Position numbers and translations under genes: made by a program. From positions 94,199 to 158,198 of the forward strand of contig CAMTWV010000002.1 of the NCBI GenBank assembly GCA_947085535.1: a stretch of DNA of 64,000 nt, read 5' to 3'. Within the stretch, counting starts at the first letter, position 1. The number at the start of each line of letters is the position of its first letter. The notes under the pieces were generated by a model. The model was not told the DNA's origin. It searched no databases and saw nothing but the letters and a program-made list of their open reading frames with translations. This document shows, in pieces, positions 10,100 to 40,677 of this stretch. This stretch comes from an uncultured Actinomycetes bacterium. Lineage in GTDB: Bacteria; Actinomycetota; Aquicultoria; Subteraquimicrobiales; CAMTWV01.

Positions 10100-12196
10100 C
10101 TAAGCTTTATTTGTATCTTCTACTAGTGCAAGGCTAGTTCGGTTTGTCTTTTTATCAAATTCAATGACTTCAACGAGAATTTTATCCCCTGCTTTAACAA
10201 CATCTTCAACAGCCCTTATCCTTTGGCGTGATAGTTTAGAGATATGAACCAACCCCTCTTTCCCGGGAAATATTTCAACGAATGCGCCAAAAGCAGTTGT
10301 TTTGGTGACCGTTCCAAGATATTTTTCACCAACCGCTGGTTCTTTTATTATGCTTTCAACAATTTGTCGAGCGCGCGCTCCATTTATTACGTTTTTAGAA
10401 GCAATATAGACGGTTCCATCGTCTTCGATATCTATGGAGACCCCGGTCTCTTCAATTATGCCTCTTATTATTTTTCCTCCTGGTCCAATTAATTCACCGA
10501 TTTTATCTTTCGCCACTTTTAAAATGTAGATTTGCGGAGCGAATTCAGAAATTTTCTCTCGAGGTGTGGCAATTGCTTCATTCATTTTTTCAAGGATAAA
10601 CAGTCGGGCTCGTTTAGCCTGCTCAAGTGCTTCTTTTAGTATCTCTTTTTTGATACCGGCTATCTTTAAATCCATTTGAAGTGCGGTCACGCCTTTAGTT
10701 GTTCCAGCAACCTTAAAATCCATATCGCCAAGAGCGTCCTCCATGCCTAAAATATCAGTTAAGATAGCATGTTTGTCGCCTTCAACTACAAGACCCATGG
10801 CAATACCACCAACATTTTCCCGAATAGGAACCCCGGCATCCATTAAAGCCATACTGCCTGCGCAGACAGAAGCCATTGAGGTTGAGCCGTTAGATTCCAG
10901 AGCTTCAGCAACCAATCTAATTGTATAGGGAAATTCAACTTCATCTGGAATGAGTGGAAGCAGAGCCCTTTCCGCCAAAGCACCGTGTCCAATTTCCCGT
11001 CTCCTTGGACCACGCAACACACCAGTATCTCCTGTTGAAAAAGGTGGGAAATTATAGTGGTGTATAAATCGCTTTGACTCTTCAGTACCAATGCTGTCGA
11101 TTCTTTGTTCATCGCTTAAAGTTCCAAGCGTTACAGTGCTTAAAACTTGAGTTTGTCCCCGAGTGAAAATTGCAGAGCCATGAGGACGTGGCAAAGGATG
11201 AATCAGACACGAAATTTGCCTGATTTCATCAGTTTTCCTGCCATCAGCTCTCTTATTTTCTTCTAAAATCATTCGCCTAATTTCTTCTTTCTGAATTTTT
11301 TCCAGCGTTTGAACAATATAGCGCTCTTTTCCTTCCAGCATGGTTGTAATTCGTTCAACCGTTTCATCTTCAACTAAAGCAAGTGTTTCTTCTCGCTCCA
11401 GTTTGTCTGGATTTTTTAAGGCTTCTCTGAGTTTATCCGTTGCATGTTCGCGCACTTTATATTCAACTTCGCCCGGGATGGTAATTATTTTGGGCTCCTT
11501 TTTTTGGGTGCCAACCTGAGTTTGGAACTTTTCCTGAAAGTTAATTAACTCTACGATGTACTTATGAGCTTCTTCAAGAGCCTGCATGGTTTCTTCTTCA
11601 GATATTTCATTTAATCCGGCTTCAACCATCAGGATTCCTTCACGGTTGCCGGCAACAGTGACATCTATGTCGCTTTGTTCTAACTCTTGAAAAGTGGGGT
11701 TGACCACCCAGCGATTATCGCACCGACCTATTCGCACAGCGCCTATTGGACCTAAAAAGGGAATATCGGAAATAGAAAGCGCAGCTGAAGCACCTATTAT
11801 AGCAAGCACATCGGGTGGGTTTACCTGGTCAACTGATAAAATACTCGCTATTACTTGAACTTCATTTCGATAACCTTTAGGAAAAGATGGGCGTATCGAC
11901 CTGTCAGTTAATCGGGCGGTTAAGATTGATTTTTCACTAGGTCGCCCTTCACGCTTAATGTAGCCGCCGGGAATTTTTCCTGCAGCATACATTTTTTCTT
12001 CTACATCAACGGTTAATGGAAAAAAATCCGTACCTTCAAGTGGTTTATCTGAAGCTGTAGCTGCTGCTAAAACTACTGTGTCTTCGCATCTGACTAAGAC
12101 ACTTCCGTTTGCCTGTCGGGCAAGTATTCCTGATTCAATAGAAATAGTCTTCCCGCCCAGCAAAATTTCTTCTTTAACAGTGTTTTTTAAATACAT
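10100..12196 (-). CDS. pnp: polynucleotide phosphorylase
   Basis: Two RNase PH domains, KH and S1 C-terminal domains. 698 aa. Follows rpsO. Confidence 0.95.
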   Translation of the reverse strand: MYLKNTVKEEILLGGKTISIESGILARQANGSVLVRCEDTVVLAAATASDKPLEGTDFFPLTVDVEEKMYAAGKIPGGYIKREGRPSEKSILTARLTDRSIRPSFPKGYRNEVQVIASILSVDQVNPPDVLAIIGASAALSISDIPFLGPIGAVRIGRCDNRWVVNPTFQELEQSDIDVTVAGNREGILMVEAGLNEISEEETMQALEEAHKYIVELINFQEKFQTQVGTQKKEPKIITIPGEVEYKVREHATDKLREALKNPDKLEREETLALVEDETVERITTMLEGKERYIVQTLEKIQKEEIRRMILEENKRADGRKTDEIRQISCLIHPLPRPHGSAIFTRGQTQVLSTVTLGTLSDEQRIDSIGTEESKRFIHHYNFPPFSTGDTGVLRGPRRREIGHGALAERALLPLIPDEVEFPYTIRLVAEALESNGSTSMASVCAGSMALMDAGVPIRENVGGIAMGLVVEGDKHAILTDILGMEDALGDMDFKVAGTTKGVTALQMDLKIAGIKKEILKEALEQAKRARLFILEKMNEAIATPREKISEFAPQIYILKVAKDKIGELIGPGGKIIRGIIEETGVSIDIEDDGTVYIASKNVINGARARQIVESIIKEPAVGEKYLGTVTKTTAFGAFVEIFPGKEGLVHISKLSRQRIRAVEDVVKAGDKILVEVIEFDKKTNRTSLALVEDTNKA

Positions 12197-12229: not shown

Positions 12230-12499
12230 TTATCCGCGCAAACCTAATTTTTTAATTACATCATTGTATCTTTTAGGGTCGATTTTTTTGATGTAAGCCA
12301 AAAGACTTCTTCTCTGCCCCACCATTTTAAGTAATCCGTGTCTTGAGCTATTATCTTTTTTGTGGATTTTGAAGTGGCTGGCTAATTTGTCGATTTTTTT
12401 TGTGAGAATTGCAATTTGGACTTCTGGGGAACCAGTATCAGTTGTATGCAGCTTAAAATCGTTAATAATCTTTTCTTTTTCGTCCTTAGCTAAAGACAT
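12230..12499 (-). CDS. rpsO: 30S ribosomal protein S15
   Basis: 89 aa, [17 protein letters not shown]...HLKIHKKD..SRRGLL signature. Confidence 0.95.
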
Positions 12500-12614
12500 T
12501 TTTTCACCTCCCCTTTTTAATCCCGCTTACCAAGAATGCGTTGGTGATTCGCGATCCCAGTGAAACGGTGAAACAGCTTGTTGCCGCTCCATTGTAAAAA
12601 ATAATGATACCATA

Positions 12615-12640
12615 GGTTGAAATTGATGTAAAATTCAACC
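12615..12640. promoter_or_regulatory. Inverted-repeat operator GGTTGAA-N12-TTCAACC upstream of the XRE gene promoter
   Basis: ggttgaaattgatgtaaaattcaacc. 7-nt perfect inverted arms. Sits in the divergent rpsO / XRE promoter region. Confidence 0.5.
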
Positions 12641-12668
12641 AAAATAGACAAGAAAAAATAGACAAGAA
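12641..12668. promoter_or_regulatory. Exact tandem direct repeat 2 x AAAATAGACAAGAA immediately upstream of a TTTACA(-35)/TATATT(-10)-like promoter of the XRE gene
   Basis: aaaatagacaagaa aaaatagacaagaa read directly. Putative -35 TTTACA at 12683-12688. Confidence 0.5.
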
Positions 12669-12752
12669 ATTTTTGCTATCTTTATTTACAAAATTGAGTT
12701 TATAAAATATATTTAAAGTCAGTAACGAAATTAAATTAAAAGGAGGATTAAA

Positions 12753-13142
12753 ATGGCAAGTATTGACGAAAAGTTGAGATTTTTATTTACCACACATTTA
12801 AGCCCTGACGGAGATGAATACACCTACGAGGAAGTTGCTCAAGGAACCGGAGGTGTAATTTCACCAAGTTATGTCTGGAATCTCCGAAATGGGAAGAAGC
12901 TGAATCCAAGCCGGTCTAAGATGGAAATACTGGCAAAATTCTTCGATGTGTCACCTTCCTACTTCTTTGATGAGGAAGACGCTCTAAAGAAAAGCTTAAG
13001 CATTGATACAAGAATCGTGAGAGCAATTGAAGACCCAGTGGTAAGAGACATTGCTTTGCGGGCAATGGACTTAAGCGACAGAAACAAAGAGTTTATTTTA
13101 GCTATGGTTGATAAAGCGAAAGAGTTAGTTGAGGAAAAATAG
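12753..13142 (+). CDS. XRE-family helix-turn-helix transcriptional regulator (ImmR/CapH/DdrO-like repressor candidate)
   Basis: HTH_3-like core YTYEEVAQGTGGVISPSYVWNLRNGKKLNPSRSKMEILAKFFDVSPSYFF plus about 50-aa C-terminal extension. SD AAAGGAGG 7 nt before ATG. Stop TAG overlaps the GTG of the next gene. Confidence 0.8.
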   Translation: MASIDEKLRFLFTTHLSPDGDEYTYEEVAQGTGGVISPSYVWNLRNGKKLNPSRSKMEILAKFFDVSPSYFFDEEDALKKSLSIDTRIVRAIEDPVVRDIALRAMDLSDRNKEFILAMVDKAKELVEEK

Positions 13143-13660
13143 TGCTCAACCAGAGCAAGCTTAGAAAAAAGGTTAATAAATTGCTAAAAGAATTGAATTT
13201 TGAAGGAAGTTTTGATTCTTTTAGGTTTGTTGAGAAACTCGGGGAGCAATTAAACTTAAAGATAAAACTCCAATCTGTTCCCATGCCGCCCGGTTTTTTT
13301 GGCTTCTGGAGTTTAATCAATGACTGTCATGTCATTCTTTATCGGGCAAATACTTCTTGGTTTCATCAGCAACAAATTATCTTCCATGAATGCGGGCATA
13401 TTTGTTTAGGCCATCATTCAGGAAGCATTGAAAAGTTTTTAAAAAGAGAAATTCTCTACTCCGAGCCCGAGGAGCAAGAAGCAGAAACTTTTGCCACACT
13501 TCTTCTATGTAATGCTATAACTCAGGGATTGACTGAGCAAGGTATTTCTCTAAGCCAATATTATAACCAAAACAGTTCTTTTTACAACGAGTGTCCCCAG
13601 GATGTAATTTCAATGCAGGATTTTATGCTTCAATTAAAAGAAGTAATGGAAATGAGGTGA
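13142..13660 (+). CDS. ImmA/IrrE-family (COG2856) HEXXH zinc metallopeptidase-domain protein
   Basis: IFHECGHICLGHH HEXXH motif followed by EAETFATLLL, matching the ImmA/IrrE E-x3-A-N-x-FA region. GTG start overlapping the upstream stop (translational coupling). Confidence 0.75.
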   Translation: MLNQSKLRKKVNKLLKELNFEGSFDSFRFVEKLGEQLNLKIKLQSVPMPPGFFGFWSLINDCHVILYRANTSWFHQQQIIFHECGHICLGHHSGSIEKFLKREILYSEPEEQEAETFATLLLCNAITQGLTEQGISLSQYYNQNSSFYNECPQDVISMQDFMLQLKEVMEMR

Positions 13661-13670
13661 GGTAACTCCC

Positions 13671-14960
13671 TTGCTTTATTACTTAGATTACCTTTTTCTT
13701 ATGCTCTTTTGGACTTGTACTTTGTATGCGCTTAAAGCTTATTATGTAAATCCACGTGATTCGAAGAATAAGCATGTTTTTTTGGTTTTTTTATTTGCTT
13801 CTATTGCTTTTACCTTTGCCGCACCCATTATTGCTCAAAAATTCAATAAGTTTTTGGGAATTAGCAGCATCAGTCGACCAATCGAGAATATCTCGAGCCT
13901 TATAGCTCTTTACTTTGGCTACCTTTTTTTTACGGATTTTGCTCCTAAAAAAAAGAAAAGAATTCCATGGCTTACTTTCTATCTTTTTTTGGTTACTGTA
14001 GCTCTAATTTCAATTTTTTCCCTGTTTTTGTCCAAACCTCAGCTTGAACCAATTTTTTTGGGTGAGGACACAAGAAATTTATCTGTTTTCATTTACAGTT
14101 TAGTTCTTCAGTCCCTTTTTCTCCCCCTTTTTGCTATTTATGCTTTAAATTTTTATAGATATGCTCGCCTGGTCAAAGAGCAAGCAACAAGAGTCAGACT
14201 TTATTCTTTATCGATAGGTTGTTTAATGGGCGCTTCGGGTCGCATTCTTGAACTCGTTTACTGGTTTGATATGCGGTATTTTGCTTATCTAAAGTTTTTC
14301 GGATTCTCTGCGGTTATTAGAATAATCAATTTATTTATGGTTTTATTTCTTTACGCTGGTTTTATAATGCCTGCTTTTTTAAGGAAAATTGTAGAGTCGT
14401 TTGGCGAACTGTTAGGATTGCGTCGAACTCGATATAATTTGATTTCCTTGCTTGCTTTAATTAACGACGCCCGTTCTTTTCTTCATTCTGATAATGAAAT
14501 GATTAATTATGTGCGGCGACTGTGCGAAAAATTTTTCTTAAGCTTAGAGGAGACAGCGCAGGCGGTAGAAAGTGCTCGGATAATTTCTGCTCTGGCTGGA
14601 AAAACAGATCAAAATTCAACTATGGAGTCTGCTCAGGTTTTTCATAGCGCTGCCAAGTATGCAGCGGCTGCCTTTGCTGAAGAAATTAAGTTTTATGACC
14701 AGGTTTATAAGAATATTTTGTATGCCAAGGAAAGGTATGACGGAAAGGATGCTATTTCTGACTTAAGTGGGGATAAATTACCAATGGGCTCACGCATTAT
14801 AAAAGTGGTTGATTGCTATTTCAATTCAAATCTTTTTCCCTTCGAAGCAGTCAAAGTTTTAAAGAAAGGTGCGAATAAAGAATTTGATCCCGAAGTAATA
14901 AAAGCTTTTATTGAAATACTCGAGGAAGAAAAAAACCTCAATCTCTTAAGATCTTCTTAG
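13671..14960 (+). CDS. 7-TM membrane protein with C-terminal degenerate (catalytically inactive) HD-GYP-like domain
   Basis: Seven hydrophobic segments in residues 1-235. The C-terminal 190 aa align by eye to the HD-GYP fold (ERYDGKDAIS ~ HHERWDGSGYP; GDKLPMGSRIIKVVDCYFN ~ GEEIPLEARILAVADVFDA; KEFDPEVIKAF ~ GTQFDPEVVEAF), but HD, HHE and GYP are replaced by LA, AKE and GKD. TTG start with SD AGGTGAGG. 3' end overlaps ribF by 23 nt on the opposite strand. Confidence 0.7.
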   Translation: MLYYLDYLFLMLFWTCTLYALKAYYVNPRDSKNKHVFLVFLFASIAFTFAAPIIAQKFNKFLGISSISRPIENISSLIALYFGYLFFTDFAPKKKKRIPWLTFYLFLVTVALISIFSLFLSKPQLEPIFLGEDTRNLSVFIYSLVLQSLFLPLFAIYALNFYRYARLVKEQATRVRLYSLSIGCLMGASGRILELVYWFDMRYFAYLKFFGFSAVIRIINLFMVLFLYAGFIMPAFLRKIVESFGELLGLRRTRYNLISLLALINDARSFLHSDNEMINYVRRLCEKFFLSLEETAQAVESARIISALAGKTDQNSTMESAQVFHSAAKYAAAAFAEEIKFYDQVYKNILYAKERYDGKDAISDLSGDKLPMGSRIIKVVDCYFNSNLFPFEAVKVLKKGANKEFDPEVIKAFIEILEEEKNLNLLRSS

Positions 14961-15864
14961 CTTTTTTAATATCTTCATGTATCTCTTCTATTAGTTGTTT
15001 CTCATCTTCAAACATTTTAATATCTCGAACTCTTTCTCTTATTTCGAGTTCAACTGGCTTTCCATATAAATTCTGGTTAAATCTAAAAATATGAGCCTCA
15101 ATGTGTCTTTTTAAGATACCAAAAGTTGGACTCTCTCCTATGTGAATAACACACGGGTTTTTTTCAGCGTTATACCAAAAAAAGCCAGCATAGACTCCTT
15201 TTTTGGGAACAGAAGCTTTATCGGGTGTTTTTATGTTAGCGGTAGGAAGTCCTAATTTTGAGTGAGCAATTCCTGTTCCTTTGATAACTTTCCCCGTAAT
15301 TCTTGGCCAGTGCCCGAGCAAACTTTTTGCTTTCTTAATATCCCCTGCTCTAATATGGTGTCTTATATTGCTGCTGCTGACCAATTCTTCCTCCAGATAC
15401 AGGAATGGTACGATTTTAGTTCCAAAACCCGTCTTTTTTTCGTAACCAATTAAGAAATCATGATCTCCTTTTGCGCCTTTTCCAAAATGAAAGTCCTCGC
15501 CTACCACTAAACTTGAGGCTTTAAGTTTTTTAAGGACTATTTCGTTAAGGAATTTTTCAGGGCTTAAGTTAGCTAACCGTTTGTTAAATTTAAGGATGAG
15601 TAAATAATCGACACCTAATTCTTCTATTAACTCTGCTTTTAAATGGGTGGCTGTCAAAATGGGGGGATGACTGCCTGGTTTAAGAACTTCGAGCGGATGA
15701 GGCTCAAAAGTAATAACAATGCTTTTGGCTCCACTTATTTTTGCAGTTTCTACCGCGGTTTTAATGATTTTTTGGTGCCCTTTATGAACACCATCAAAAA
15801 CGCCGATGGTGACAACGCTTTTTTCTATGAATGGCATGTCTTTAAGTTCTCTTATAATTTCCAT
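14938..15864 (-). CDS. ribF: bifunctional riboflavin kinase / FMN adenylyltransferase
   Basis: GVFDGVHKGHQ nucleotidyltransferase motif and C-terminal riboflavin kinase domain. 308 aa. Confidence 0.9.
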   Translation of the reverse strand: MEIIRELKDMPFIEKSVVTIGVFDGVHKGHQKIIKTAVETAKISGAKSIVITFEPHPLEVLKPGSHPPILTATHLKAELIEELGVDYLLILKFNKRLANLSPEKFLNEIVLKKLKASSLVVGEDFHFGKGAKGDHDFLIGYEKKTGFGTKIVPFLYLEEELVSSSNIRHHIRAGDIKKAKSLLGHWPRITGKVIKGTGIAHSKLGLPTANIKTPDKASVPKKGVYAGFFWYNAEKNPCVIHIGESPTFGILKRHIEAHIFRFNQNLYGKPVELEIRERVRDIKMFEDEKQLIEEIHEDIKKAKKILRD

Positions 15865-15866
15865 TT

Positions 15867-16778
15867 TTATTCGTTAAATACTCTTATGGGTTGAGCGAAA
15901 AAATGTTTTGTTTTTTTGGCAATGGCAACTAAATTCTCTTTTTCGTCGACTATTTTTAACAACTTGTTTTCAACTAACGTGGTGTGCGGTGCAATTTCAA
16001 TTATCATGTTTTCGATTAAAGCCTGCCCCTGACGGATGACTTTTGCTGCCTCATTTCCGATTTTAATGGAAGGATAAGGCAAAATCCGATTTAAGGAAAA
16101 AATGTGCTTTTTGAGTTCATTTAAATTCATTTCTTTAATTTTGTCTAAATCCATAGCTTGTTTTAAGTCAAATTCCCCTACCTTTGTTCGAGTTAACTTG
16201 CTTAAATGGCCACCACAGTCAAGTCTCTTTCCTATGTCGGCACACAGGCTTCTTATGTATGTTCCACTGGATGAGAGAACTCGAAAATCTACCCTCGGGT
16301 ACTCGCCATTCTCTATGTTTATTAATTCTAATTCATGAATCGTTACTTCTCTCTCAGGTATTGTAATCGTTGTTGCAATGCCTTTTCGTGCCAGTTTATA
16401 AAGGGGTGTTCCGTTTATTTTTATAGCGGAAACAAGAGGTGGTGTTTGTTTAATTTTCCCTCTAAATTCATCAAAAACGGTTGAAATTTTCTCGGTGGTT
16501 ATGCTTACAGGTTTTTGGGTAAGAATTTTTCCCCATTTATCCAGGGTATCAGTGGTTATTCCTAATGTTAATTGAGCAAGATATTCTTTATTCTGATTTT
16601 GCAGAAAAGGGGTAAGTTTTGTGGCTTCTCCAAGACATAAAACTAAAATTCCTGTTGCCATCGGATCTAAAGTGCCGGTATGACCTACTTTCTTAAGTTT
16701 AAATAGCTTTTTCACAATTAAAACTGCATCATGCGAAGTTATTCCGGCTGGTTTATTGATAATTAATACACCATTCAT
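15867..16778 (-). CDS. truB: tRNA pseudouridine(55) synthase
   Basis: GVLIINKPAGITSHD...KVGHTGTLDPMATG catalytic Asp motif, PUA C-terminus. Confidence 0.9.
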   Translation of the reverse strand: MNGVLIINKPAGITSHDAVLIVKKLFKLKKVGHTGTLDPMATGILVLCLGEATKLTPFLQNQNKEYLAQLTLGITTDTLDKWGKILTQKPVSITTEKISTVFDEFRGKIKQTPPLVSAIKINGTPLYKLARKGIATTITIPEREVTIHELELINIENGEYPRVDFRVLSSSGTYIRSLCADIGKRLDCGGHLSKLTRTKVGEFDLKQAMDLDKIKEMNLNELKKHIFSLNRILPYPSIKIGNEAAKVIRQGQALIENMIIEIAPHTTLVENKLLKIVDEKENLVAIAKKTKHFFAQPIRVFNE

Positions 16779-16780
16779 AT

Positions 16781-17758
16781 TTACTCTGTTTGGGTAAGCT
16801 TTTTGGTCAAATCAATTAAAATCTCAATAGTCTTTTCTTCTTTGAAGGGCGAAGAGAATCCAGCGGCGTTAGGATGTCCCCCTCCACCAAATTTTTCAGC
16901 AATTTTAATTACGTTAAATGGACCATGCGACCTCAAGCTCACCTTTATAGTTTTGTCGGGTAGCTCTTTTAAAATAGCTGCCACTTTTGTACCATTAATA
17001 CCTCTAATAATGTCGATAAAGTTTTCTGTTTCTTCCATTTTTGCGCCTGTTTGCGCGAGGTCTTTTTGGGTGATAACTGAGTAAGCAAGTCCAATTTCAG
17101 GAAGAAAGTTTAGCTTTTGAAGAGTATGCATAAGCAACTTAACACTTTCATGGGAATAATTTTCATAGACATTTTGAAAAACAAAATTAGGGGAAACACC
17201 GTATCCTAAAAGCTCTTCTGCCATTTTAAGAGTCTTTTTTGAAGTGTTTGAATACTGGAATTTGCCTGTGTCAGTAACAAGTCCTGTATAAAGACAAAGA
17301 GCAATTGAGTGGTCAATTTCCTCATTTAAATATTTAATTAAATCAAATATCACTTCTGTTGTGGCGCTAGCTTTTCCGTCAACTATGTTTATGACGCCGA
17401 ACATTTCGTTGTCTGCGTGATGATCGATGTTGACCAAGGTAATTGCACTTTTTGCTTCTTCGATGAGATTACCCAGACGCTCAATGTTAGCACAGTCTAA
17501 AGCAATGAATACTTCAGGTTTTTTAGGGCATTCGAAGTGTGGTTTTATAAGGTTTGCTCCCGGAAGAAAGGTATATTGAGGTGGGATGCGTAAAATTGGT
17601 TCACCCCAGCTTAAACAAACTTCTTTGCCCAGATTGGAGAGAAAAAGCCCCAAACCCAACAGCGAACTGATGCCATCGCCATCAGGCTGAACATGGGTGG
17701 CAACAACAAAACTGTTTGTCTTTTGAATTAAATTTGCAAATGGTTGAAAATCATTCAT
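16781..17758 (-). CDS. nrnA: DHH/DHHA1 phosphoesterase, NrnA-like nanoRNase / pAp phosphatase
   Basis: DGDGISS and NIDHHADN DHH motifs, GGGH DHHA1 motif. Start probably at MNDFQPF (ORF track start 17827 overlaps rbfA by 77 nt). Confidence 0.8.
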   Translation of the reverse strand: MNDFQPFANLIQKTNSFVVATHVQPDGDGISSLLGLGLFLSNLGKEVCLSWGEPILRIPPQYTFLPGANLIKPHFECPKKPEVFIALDCANIERLGNLIEEAKSAITLVNIDHHADNEMFGVINIVDGKASATTEVIFDLIKYLNEEIDHSIALCLYTGLVTDTGKFQYSNTSKKTLKMAEELLGYGVSPNFVFQNVYENYSHESVKLLMHTLQKLNFLPEIGLAYSVITQKDLAQTGAKMEETENFIDIIRGINGTKVAAILKELPDKTIKVSLRSHGPFNVIKIAEKFGGGGHPNAAGFSSPFKEEKTIEILIDLTKKLTQTE

Positions 17759-18107
17759 CAGGTGTTCCCTCGTGAATTTTTTTAAGTATTTCGGTAATTC
17801 TAATGCCGTACTCAATTGATTCATCAATTTTAAAAGTTAGTTCAGGGAGAAATTTAATTTGCACTCTTTTTCCCAATTCATTTCGAATATGACCTTTAGC
17901 GTGCTCTATTGCTTTAAATGTTCGCGCAATTTCCTTTTCTTTTCCCATAATACTTAAATAAACGTGGGCGTTTTTCAAGTCAGGAGAAACCTCAACGCTT
18001 GTAATGGTGACAAATCCAATACGAGGGTCTTTTAGCTCTTTCTGGAAAATAGACGATATAGTTTCTCTTAGAACTTTATTAACACGAAGAGTTCTTGGAC
18101 GTCGCAT
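17751..18107 (-). CDS. rbfA: ribosome-binding factor A
   Basis: 118 aa KH-like RbfA, RVNKVLRETISSIFQKELKDPRIGFVTIT. Confidence 0.9.
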   Translation of the reverse strand: MRRPRTLRVNKVLRETISSIFQKELKDPRIGFVTITSVEVSPDLKNAHVYLSIMGKEKEIARTFKAIEHAKGHIRNELGKRVQIKFLPELTFKIDESIEYGIRITEILKKIHEGTPDE

Positions 18108-39899: not shown

Positions 39900-40035
39900 C
39901 ATCAGACACGGTAGACCCATCCCTTTTCCCTAAATTAACTGGAAGCTGGTAACTGTGCTATTAGCTATCGAGGCTGTAAAGCTGAGCTATGTCGCTATGT
40001 CGAGAGACGATTGAAATAAAGAAGGCGGATAAAAA

Positions 40036-40266
40036 TCAATCGATAATTTCAACAATTGCTCTTTTGTTTTCTTTAGCTGCGGCAGCTCCCACAATTACTC
40101 TAAGGGCTTTAGCTATCCTTCCCTCTTTACCGATTACTTTACCAATGTCGTCGGGAGCAACTTTTAATTGCAAAATGACAGATTTCGCACCTTCTACTAT
40201 GCTAACATCAACTTCCTCGGGAGTGTCCACAAGCGCTCGGGCTAACGTCTCTAACAGTTCTTTCAA
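40036..40266 (-). CDS. KH-domain RNA-binding protein (YlqC/UPF0109)
   Basis: 76 aa, VIGKEGRIAKALRVI GXXG loop. Confidence 0.85.
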   Translation of the reverse strand: MKELLETLARALVDTPEEVDVSIVEGAKSVILQLKVAPDDIGKVIGKEGRIAKALRVIVGAAAAKENKRAIVEIID

Positions 40267-40320
40267 CTCAGCACCTCCTATTCTTTCTCAACGGGTTTCG
40301 CTTTGGTTGACGCCTTGGAT

Positions 40321-40677
40321 TTAGACGGTTTTTTTTGCCTCAACAGTCTTTTTTGCTGGAGCTTTTTTAGCGGTAACTTTTTCTTCTGGCAACTTTTCTT
40401 TTGACTCTACTTTCTTTTCTACTTTTTTTGTAGGAAGAGCTATATTTGCAATTTTAAGCAGCTTTTCCACTGTATTAGTAGGTTTCGCTCCTTGCGAAAG
40501 CCATAATAACGCTCTTTCTTCATCCATTTTCACAAAGGAGGGTTCTTGCCTCGGATCATATTGACCAATGATTTCGATAAATCTACCATCTCTCGGCATC
40601 CGAGAATCTGCTATAACAACACGGTAAAATGGCTTATTCTTGCTGCCCCCTCTGCTTAATCTGATTTTGACTGCCAA
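40321..40677 (-). CDS. rpsP: 30S ribosomal protein S16 with Lys/Ala-rich C-terminal tail
   Basis: [21 protein letters not shown]... plus about 40-aa [12 protein letters not shown]...[16 protein letters not shown] extension. Confidence 0.9.

Follow-up and report, generated by a model that had tools for sequence, protein, structure and literature searches.

At positions 12753-14960 of the 64,000-nucleotide (nt) stretch of DNA analysed here (hereafter, the window; positions 94,199 to 158,198 of the forward strand of contig CAMTWV010000002.1, assembly GCA_947085535.1, from an uncultured Actinomycetes bacterium), the list of open reading frames (ORFs) contains a cassette of three close-set plus-strand genes that is flanked by rpsO and ribF. 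The first gene (12753-13142, ATG start) encodes a 129-amino-acid (aa) regulator of the XRE type, the second (13142-13660, GTG start) a 172-aa protein resembling M78 zinc peptidases, and the third (13671-14960, TTG start) a 429-aa membrane protein with seven predicted transmembrane helices (7TM protein). The initial annotation had described these ORFs as tightly packed, which was borne out: the TAG stop codon of the XRE gene and the GTG start codon of the peptidase gene have one G in common, resulting in a 1-nt overlap; the Shine-Dalgarno-like stretch AGGTGAGG runs across the peptidase stop codon, with the TTG of the 7TM gene 10 nt further on; and the 7TM gene and the 3' end of ribF overlap convergently by 23 nt. 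It likewise holds that the cassette stands alone on the plus strand, as the remaining non-nested ORFs of at least 110 aa in the window all lie on the minus strand. A plus-strand ORF at 39989-40324, the single seeming exception, was judged spurious; it overlaps a 76-aa minus-strand KH-type gene and has no Pfam match.

Comparison with other genomes shows the cassette to be, judging from sequence relationships, a deep-branching member of a three-gene module that is conserved across Actinomycetota, the lineage of the window probably belonging to the order Candidatus Subteraquimicrobiales of the class Candidatus Aquicultoria. Nineteen loci outside the window (cited below by their L numbers) were scanned with hidden Markov models (HMMs) of the families, nine of them reached via the 7TM protein and ten independently via the peptidase. 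Together, these loci span metagenome-assembled genomes (MAGs), Amycolatopsis chromosomes and plasmids of Streptomyces, Nocardia, Rhodococcus, Gordonia, Mycobacterium and Paenarthrobacter, with the ten peptidase-reached loci drawn from Streptomyces, Nocardia, Rhodococcus, Gordonia, Mycobacterium avium, Paenarthrobacter and Mycobacteroides. All nine 7TM-reached loci (L001, L003, L019, L021, L023, L015-L018) combine, on one strand, an XRE gene, a gene for a HExxH protein of ~175-200 aa and a 7TM gene, and from the peptidase side, a protein of the MAB_1171c/DUF6545 type is encoded immediately downstream in nine of ten cases. Overall, the peptidase gene lies directly upstream of the 7TM gene in 18 of the 19 loci, usually overlapping it, and a family-type XRE gene is present nearby in 17. 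The earlier proposals of a linked three-gene unit and of an XRE-COG2856/M78 pair, the latter visible in the window as the 1-nt overlap, thus both stand; no homologue of the 7TM protein turned up that lacked an M78-like partner next to it.

The trio recurs with an unchanged gene order at unrelated genomic sites and on plasmids, its hosts belonging to at least four actinobacterial orders and to MAG lineages. In Amycolatopsis, both on chromosomes and on plasmids, as well as on plasmids of Streptomyces, it consists of an HTH/XRE protein, a protein of 175-200 aa and a canonical 7TM protein, and the peptidases of such canonical loci are variously annotated as 'toxin', 'regulator component', 'ParH-like protein', 'ImmA/IrrE family metallo-endopeptidase' or 'hypothetical'. 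In a tblastn search, one of the Streptomyces 'toxin' peptidases matched 158 actinobacterial plasmid records. The peptidases and XREs of these canonical loci are 20-31% identical to the window proteins, and the catalytic residues are invariant. The window 7TM protein itself belongs to a smaller group with a different cytoplasmic tail (HD-type; see below), which comprises a 96-98% identical relative at the same rpsO/ribF site (L003), members of 50-69% identity located between VapBC- and MazE/PIN-type pairs (L001/L002), and members of 29-46% identity that are followed by an overlapping flavin adenine dinucleotide (FAD)-monooxygenase gene (L019/L020). Both upstream genes accompany every HD-type protein that could be placed on a contig, except in L004, whose contig ends inside the 7TM gene.

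Within the module, the peptidase and 7TM genes form the fixed part. Wherever the two occur together (18 loci), they either overlap or are separated by no more than 10 nt, with the L110 junction being counted from the start of the scanned ORF (the annotated start leaves 62 nt). The position of the XRE gene varies: it may precede the pair, follow it on the opposite strand (L025, L109, L110) or follow it on the same strand (L111). Besides, several loci continue beyond the 7TM gene. A cytochrome P450 gene follows right after it in six of them (L015, L016, L017, L027, L108, L113) and is found 1.6 kb away in a seventh, and an FAD monooxygenase gene comes after it in one metagenomic HD-type locus (L019, 7401-8501). 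The oxygenase genes that follow directly overlap the 7TM gene or sit within a 10-nt gap, which hints that a small molecule might be the input or the output of the module.

The domain calls of the initial annotation were confirmed for all three proteins, with HTH_3 and HD_5 scoring above their Pfam cut-offs and the divergent M78 domain remaining below its own, yet supported by further profiles and an HExxH...E motif. In the XRE protein, HTH_3 (PF01381) is matched over residues 23-71 with 26.7 bits against a cut-off of 23 (E 5.6e-6), and the PADLOC capH profile is matched as well (E 3.8e-8). Its N-terminal helix-turn-helix (HTH) is encoded at about nt 12819-12965 of the plus strand, and its C-terminal helical domain aligns to the dimerisation domain of Mycobacterium tuberculosis EspR, by far the closest solved structure (PDB 3qf3, 3r1f, 4ndw). 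With phmmer, residues 7-123 align to EspR 9-126 at 31% identity (E 5e-9), and a profile of six trio-linked XREs covers EspR over its full length (positions 9-132) with an E-value of 6e-26, whereas the CapH N-terminal domain reaches 4e-4 and DdrOC 0.05. Among the trio-linked XREs of other loci, those with an EspR match of 100 or more residues are 28-38% identical to EspR, and identity between EspR and the trio XREs is about equal to that among the trio XREs. By these alignments, the trio regulator is an EspR-family XRE, homologous in the HTH as well as in the C-terminal dimerisation domain, and not cI-, DdrO- or CapH-like. In EspR, truncation of the C-terminus leads to the loss of dimer-of-dimers formation or higher-order assembly and of activation (PMC3315491), and the predicted architecture of the trio regulator would suit proteolytic control. 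For all this kinship, EspR (Rv3849), a nucleoid-associated regulator of ESX-1 virulence, has been described as a stand-alone global regulator, and neither a peptidase nor a 7TM partner is mentioned in the EspR literature that we found, where Rv3850, encoded next to espR, is called just a 'conserved hypothetical protein'. On a Streptomyces coeruleorubidus plasmid (L016, 2481-3224), a 247-aa 'hypothetical protein' encoded upstream of the peptidase has two EspR-like matches (residues 15-92 and 119-239) and looks like a tandem duplication of the regulator.

The second protein of the window matches phrog_87, a phage ImmA-like metallo-protease family, over residues 4-123 (E 4.8e-9) and PADLOC capP (E 2.1e-6). 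It contains the zinc motif HECGH (residues 82-86, nt 13385-13399, plus strand) and, further downstream, the motif EEQEAETFA (E-x2-EAE-x-FA; residues 110-118, nt 13469-13495, plus strand). In an alignment of 18 peptidase-family sequences, H82, E83, H86, H91, E111, A114 and E115 are invariant, and 16 of these 18 members match Peptidase_M78 at E ≤0.1, the best at 6.8e-7. The spacing of the zinc motif (H82, E83, H86, E115) appears to resemble that of IrrE. With its motif intact, the window protein apparently represents a divergent branch of the M78 peptidases and would be catalytically competent.

The third protein falls into two parts, namely a 7TM domain (residues 1-240, nt 13671-14390) on a divergent branch of the MAB_1171c family and a degenerate cytoplasmic HD-GYP domain (residues 241-429, nt 14391-14960), the last 23 nt of which make up the overlap with ribF. 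For the seven hydrophobic helices, loop charges predict a topology with the N-terminus outside and the C-terminus inside. The transmembrane domain matches NCBIfam NF042915 (MAB_1171c family putative transporter) with an E-value of 2e-17 and 63.3 bits against a cut-off of 100, the match being limited to profile positions 2-239 of 362, and the closest folds of the bundle are like those of G-protein-coupled receptors (GPCRs) and not those of transporters. Run exhaustively against 1.84 billion representative proteins, phmmer gave nine matches to this domain, which fall into the small HD-type group with its degenerate HD_5 tail and canonical MAB_1171c proteins with a DUF6545 tail. The HD-type subfamily is rare, since among 185,579 species genomes there was one full-length relative (on the L001 contig), with nine further loci matching the HD-GYP part only. 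As word-indexed protein searches with the 7TM protein and two profiles returned 4-9 proteins and were too insensitive, annotated plasmid records were used instead. Neither a wider alignment nor that of the peptidases offered a stretch of sufficient conservation for scanning loci.

The tail of the window protein matches Pfam HD_5 (31.1 bits against a cut-off of 27.2; E 2.4e-7), and DUF6545 (PF20182) was not detected in the protein by the Pfam scan. A BLASTP alignment to a true HD-GYP protein confirms the earlier observation that the catalytic motifs are lost: the first histidine is replaced by Y280, HD by A309-G310, HHE by A352-K353-E354 and GYP by D360-A361-I362, with E354, D357-G358, D381 and a C-terminal FDPEV motif being kept. 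The overall relationship to HD-GYP c-di-GMP phosphodiesterases, including their membrane-anchored sensor forms, is nevertheless retained in both sequence and fold, although the metal-binding and signature residues are replaced. An HMM of the HD-type subfamily matches true HD-GYP proteins with E-values of 1e-16 to 1e-21 and up to positions 12-187 of 192, and for an AlphaFold2 model (11 sequences, predicted local distance difference test (pLDDT) score of 70), the best Foldseek match in the PDB was the HD-GYP domain of DvhD. Going by these matches, the tail is a complete HD-GYP domain that is not catalytic and from which hydrolysis would be unexpected; such a dead domain could bind a nucleotide or a partner protein. 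With a probability of 91.6% (E 8e-7), hhalign matches the DUF6545 tail of the canonical members over 97 columns to the HD-type tail, in the first half of the latter, and D266, L271 and E300 are invariant in both tail types in the full-family alignment. As the simplest reading, we infer that DUF6545 may have arisen by the shortening of a degenerate HD-GYP domain, whose longer, ancestral-looking form would be kept by the window subfamily. Accordingly placed as a sister subfamily, the window protein shares with the canonical MAB_1171c/DUF6545 proteins a homologous 7TM domain, the upstream XRE and HExxH proteins and a homologous tail start, but it scores below the family cut-off and carries the complete degenerate HD-GYP domain in place of the shorter DUF6545.

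We favour, at a confidence slightly short of even, the reading that the trio operates as a switch composed of receptor, peptidase and repressor, in which the 7TM protein would be the receptor that controls a peptidase cleaving the EspR-like repressor. In the resting state, the cassette promoter, and perhaps further sites, would be occupied by a dimer or oligomer of the regulator. The 7TM protein may then sense a membrane or envelope signal or a small hydrophobic molecule, or perhaps a nucleotide via its dead HD-GYP pocket, and its cytoplasmic domain would hold or activate the soluble peptidase that is co-made with it by translational coupling. Once activated, the peptidase might clip off the C-terminal oligomerisation domain of the regulator, much as IrrE acts on DdrO and CapP on CapH, which would alter the expression of the operon, including, in other loci, the downstream P450 or FAD monooxygenase genes. 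That the peptidase may cleave the regulator is suggested by analogy, because cleavage of the XRE partner by the M78 partner is established for ImmR/ImmA, DdrO/IrrE and CapH/CapP (PMC2701414); by the same analogy, the cut site would probably lie in the C-terminal domain of the regulator.

Several observations lead us to prefer a sensor to an effector as the role of the 7TM protein. The peptidase-7TM pair is the invariant and presumably translationally coupled core of the module; the cytoplasmic domain has a signalling fold; the transmembrane bundle resembles receptors rather than transporters or pores; other members have downstream enzymes in the same operon; and no association with defence or phages was found. 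The initial annotation had taken the 7TM protein for the sole cargo of the switch. This view does not agree with a peptidase-7TM pair that stays invariant while the XRE gene moves and enzyme genes follow in other loci, which fits the 7TM protein better as a part of the switch than as its cargo, and because of these extra genes in the operon it would not be the sole output either.

A number of points weigh against the receptor-peptidase-repressor reading. The Peptidase_M78 match of the window protein stays below threshold (19.2 bits against a cut-off of 22; E 1.1e-3), the peptidase family profile found noise only and no solved M78 structure among the PDB sequences, and the single-sequence AlphaFold2 model of the window peptidase (pLDDT 39.7) is unusable for a fold assignment. 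Furthermore, the window cassette has no downstream enzyme gene, and a simple need to co-express the peptidase with an effector would equally predict a fixed gene order and coupling. Lastly, the Mycobacteroides abscessus plasmid pGD25-1 (L112, 1895-2858) carries a pair of XRE and M78-like genes without a 7TM gene, so that the peptidase-7TM link, though strong, has an exception at the fringe of the family. On this plasmid, a methyltransferase gene on the opposite strand takes the place of the 7TM gene.

XRE-M78 pairs serve as switches that respond to DNA damage or infection in mobile elements, in the control of Deinococcus repair genes and in anti-phage operons. The trio shares with ImmR/ImmA of ICEBs1, DdrO/IrrE and CapH/CapP the arrangement of an XRE with a C-terminal oligomerisation domain beside a small HExxH...E zinc peptidase. 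It differs from these systems in that its peptidase is divergent and paired with a 7TM protein that they lack, in its EspR-like regulator, and in having no link to excision genes, to a DNA-repair regulon or to known defence operons. To our knowledge, the signal reaches a soluble peptidase in all known XRE-M78 switches. A parallel to the proposed logic is offered by BlaR1/BlaI and MecR1/MecI, in which a membrane sensor with a built-in zinc protease inactivates a repressor; there, as would be the case for the trio, the path leads from a membrane sensor via a zinc protease to the cleavage of a dimeric repressor and to derepression. The trio has no sequence relationship to these systems, however; its sensor and protease are separate proteins, the protease is of the M78 and not the M56 type, and a penicillin-binding domain is absent.

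The strongest rival, which we nonetheless regard as unlikely, holds that the XRE protein and the peptidase form a CapH/CapP- or ImmR/ImmA-type switch and that the 7TM protein is the cargo, a membrane effector of an abortive-infection or toxin-like kind induced after DNA damage or infection. The capH, capP and phrog_87 matches would fit this idea, as would the absence of any other candidate output gene from the window cassette, the frequency of the module on plasmids, with its 158 records, and the location of the L001 trio among VapBC/MazE-PIN pairs and near an integrase gene. The database label 'toxin' for the peptidase family points in the same direction, as it goes back to a prediction of COG2856-Xre pairs as toxin-antitoxin systems (PMC2701414). 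Yet the 7TM protein has no match in PADLOC; neither it nor a canonical member matched any of 50,697 phage records, and among the IMG/VR contigs there was no relative of the HD-type subfamily. Although the capH and capP profiles match, the neighbours of the cassette are housekeeping genes and not those of a CapH/CapP-type defence operon. Known CapH/CapP-type pairs keep the regulator pair and vary the cargo, whereas the constant pair of the trio is that of peptidase and 7TM protein, with the XRE gene changing place. The sharing of an operon with downstream P450 or monooxygenase genes and the signalling-type fold of the cytoplasmic domain also speak against an effector, and stable inheritance in a housekeeping region since RibF diverged to 70% identity would be unusual for a costly suicide effector. 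The earlier suggestion of a defence or abortive-infection function therefore found no support.

Even less probable, in our view, is that the 7TM protein acts as a transporter or efflux component for a hydrophobic compound that is modified by the adjacent P450 or monooxygenase, with the XRE protein and the peptidase as local regulators. The recurrence of oxygenase genes directly downstream would be in line with such a role, and so would the NCBIfam name 'MAB_1171c family putative transporter', even though this name is a prediction. A transposon mutant of MAB_1171c in M. abscessus came out of a screen for altered antibiotic susceptibility and formed ~50% less biofilm, but transport was not measured in that study (PMC8707978), and the phenotype fits any envelope-related role. 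Besides, the 7TM protein lacks an internal repeat, neither an ATPase nor another transporter-typical partner accompanies it, its large cytoplasmic domain derived from HD-GYP is typical of sensors, and an enzyme partner is absent from the window cassette. That the three genes are unrelated housekeeping genes adjacent by chance, or that the ORFs are not real genes, is extremely improbable: the site is kept in two relatives and the composition is like that of the neighbours, but the same families recur, with their order unchanged, on plasmids and at unrelated sites in the orders and MAG lineages named above, and all three proteins have conserved homologues with invariant catalytic or motif residues.

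The individual parts of the trio are already catalogued in Pfam, NCBIfam, PADLOC and PHROGs; what appears to be new is their union into a likely XRE/M78 switch that has a 7TM partner of its own. The initial annotation had not recognised the three-gene architecture as a described system. This remains true inasmuch as the searchable literature, itself limited, yielded no paper on the triad, on the EspR kinship of its regulator or on an HD-GYP ancestry of DUF6545; it does not hold in the sense that the architecture recurs in Actinomycetota and that its parts carry database names. The pairing of XRE and COG2856 proteins as such has been known since 2009 (PMC2701414). The triad ties this pair to a seven-helix protein across much of the phylum, including Streptomyces and Mycobacterium, and if the latter is a sensor, this would constitute a new bacterial route from an envelope or small-molecule signal to transcription. 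It is a tentative and somewhat doubtful proposition that the triad represents an unrecognised class of transmembrane signalling, widespread in Actinomycetota, in which a GPCR-like 7TM protein gates an M78 peptidase that resets an EspR-family regulator. If so, EspR would descend from, or remain subject to, such a proteolytic switch, and the window copy would preserve the ancestral form of the receptor with a full-length HD-GYP domain. Independent of this, families with placeholder names, i.e. the DUF6545/MAB_1171c 'putative transporter' and the 'toxin', gain a testable function, DUF6545 is offered an evolutionary origin as an HD-GYP remnant, and the tuberculosis regulator EspR is placed in a family with peptidase partners, which suggests that proteolytic control of EspR should be sought.

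With respect to its history at the site, the cassette had been taken for an acquired insertion. It does physically interrupt the truB-ribF/rpsO-pnp neighbourhood, but its GC content (0.35-0.41) and the GC content at third codon positions (0.31-0.41) are indistinguishable from those of the neighbours, and because of this match in composition, nothing in the sequence marks a recent acquisition. The 96-98% identical relative L003 has the cassette at the same rpsO/ribF site, with a 12-nt ribF overlap, and in L004, a MAG of Candidatus Subteraquimicrobiales, the 7TM gene is convergent with ribF-truB and overlaps by 4 nt. Since L004 has it at the same place, with identities to the window of 69.7% for RibF, 63.3% for TruB and 53.8% for the 7TM protein, the cassette is old at this site, predating by far the split between L004 and the window, and is a long resident that has been kept vertically next to ribF. 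Over longer times, the module does move, because L001, an Actinomycetota MAG of another lineage, carries the trio elsewhere and plasmids often carry canonical members. No close relative without the cassette was found, and a metagenome scan with RibF gave nothing closer than 40% identity; as a distant background, rpsO lies within 400 nt of ribF in 19 of 32 loci.

The intergenic region between rpsO and the XRE gene (253 nt, 12500-12752) contains a repeat cluster at 12640-12686 that may be considered a candidate operator. A repeat search resolved this plus-strand cluster into two copies of the direct repeat AAAATAGACAAGAAA (12640-12674) and, at 12653-12686, an imperfect palindrome. The palindrome borders directly on the -35 hexamer of a sigma-70-like promoter candidate (12685-12713, plus strand; TTTACA, 17 nt, TATATT; 10/12 consensus positions) located 40 nt before the XRE ATG, which is preceded by the Shine-Dalgarno sequence AAGGAGG (12740-12746, plus strand). 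The cluster is kept, save for a 2-nt deletion, in the 96%-identical relative L003; it is unrecognisable in the distant loci L001 and L019, and the upstream regions of distant trios have no common recognisable operator. The EspR DNA motif TTTGC[TC][GA] is not enriched in the window (79 matches versus 68 expected), and a single match lies beside the -35 hexamer of the cassette. Toward rpsO, there is a promoter-like site on the minus strand (12632-12604; TTTACA, 17 nt, TATCAT, with TG), and a regulator bound at 12640-12686, between the divergent promoter-like sites, could in principle affect rpsO-pnp as well. The best promoter match of the region lies antisense within the 7TM gene, just downstream of ribF (14796-14824, minus strand; TTGAAA, 17 nt, TATAAT; 11/12), but in a consensus scan the number of promoter- and terminator-like sites in the region was not above that in shuffled sequence, and none of the candidate sites between rpsO and the XRE gene exceeds chance. 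No terminator-like site was found between the convergent and overlapping 7TM gene and ribF, where convergent read-through or antisense transcription seems likely.

The flanking genes all lie on the minus strand, with pnp (10100-12196) and rpsO (12230-12499) on the XRE side and ribF (14938-15864) and truB (15867-16778) on the 7TM side, followed beyond truB by genes for a DHH/DHHA1 protein, rbfA and infB. No Rfam family (ribosomal-protein or pnp leader, riboswitch or tRNA) was matched anywhere in the window at gathering thresholds, and the rpsO 5' region (12500-12604, ~100 nt) is therefore left unannotated. In the related loci L001 and L002, the 7TM gene is closely followed, in convergent orientation, by a gene for an Rce1-like (CPBP) intramembrane protease (L001 11586-13136, L002 2071-3621), and the flanks consist of PIN/RHH and PIN/MazE toxin-antitoxin pairs, with a tyrosine recombinase gene a few kb away in L001. 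Back in the window, the ORF of the DHH/DHHA1 (NrnA-like) protein (16781-17827), which measures 348 aa from its first TTG, overlaps the rbfA-like ORF (17751-18107) by 77 nt; its true start is probably further downstream, the annotation of L003 giving 325 aa.

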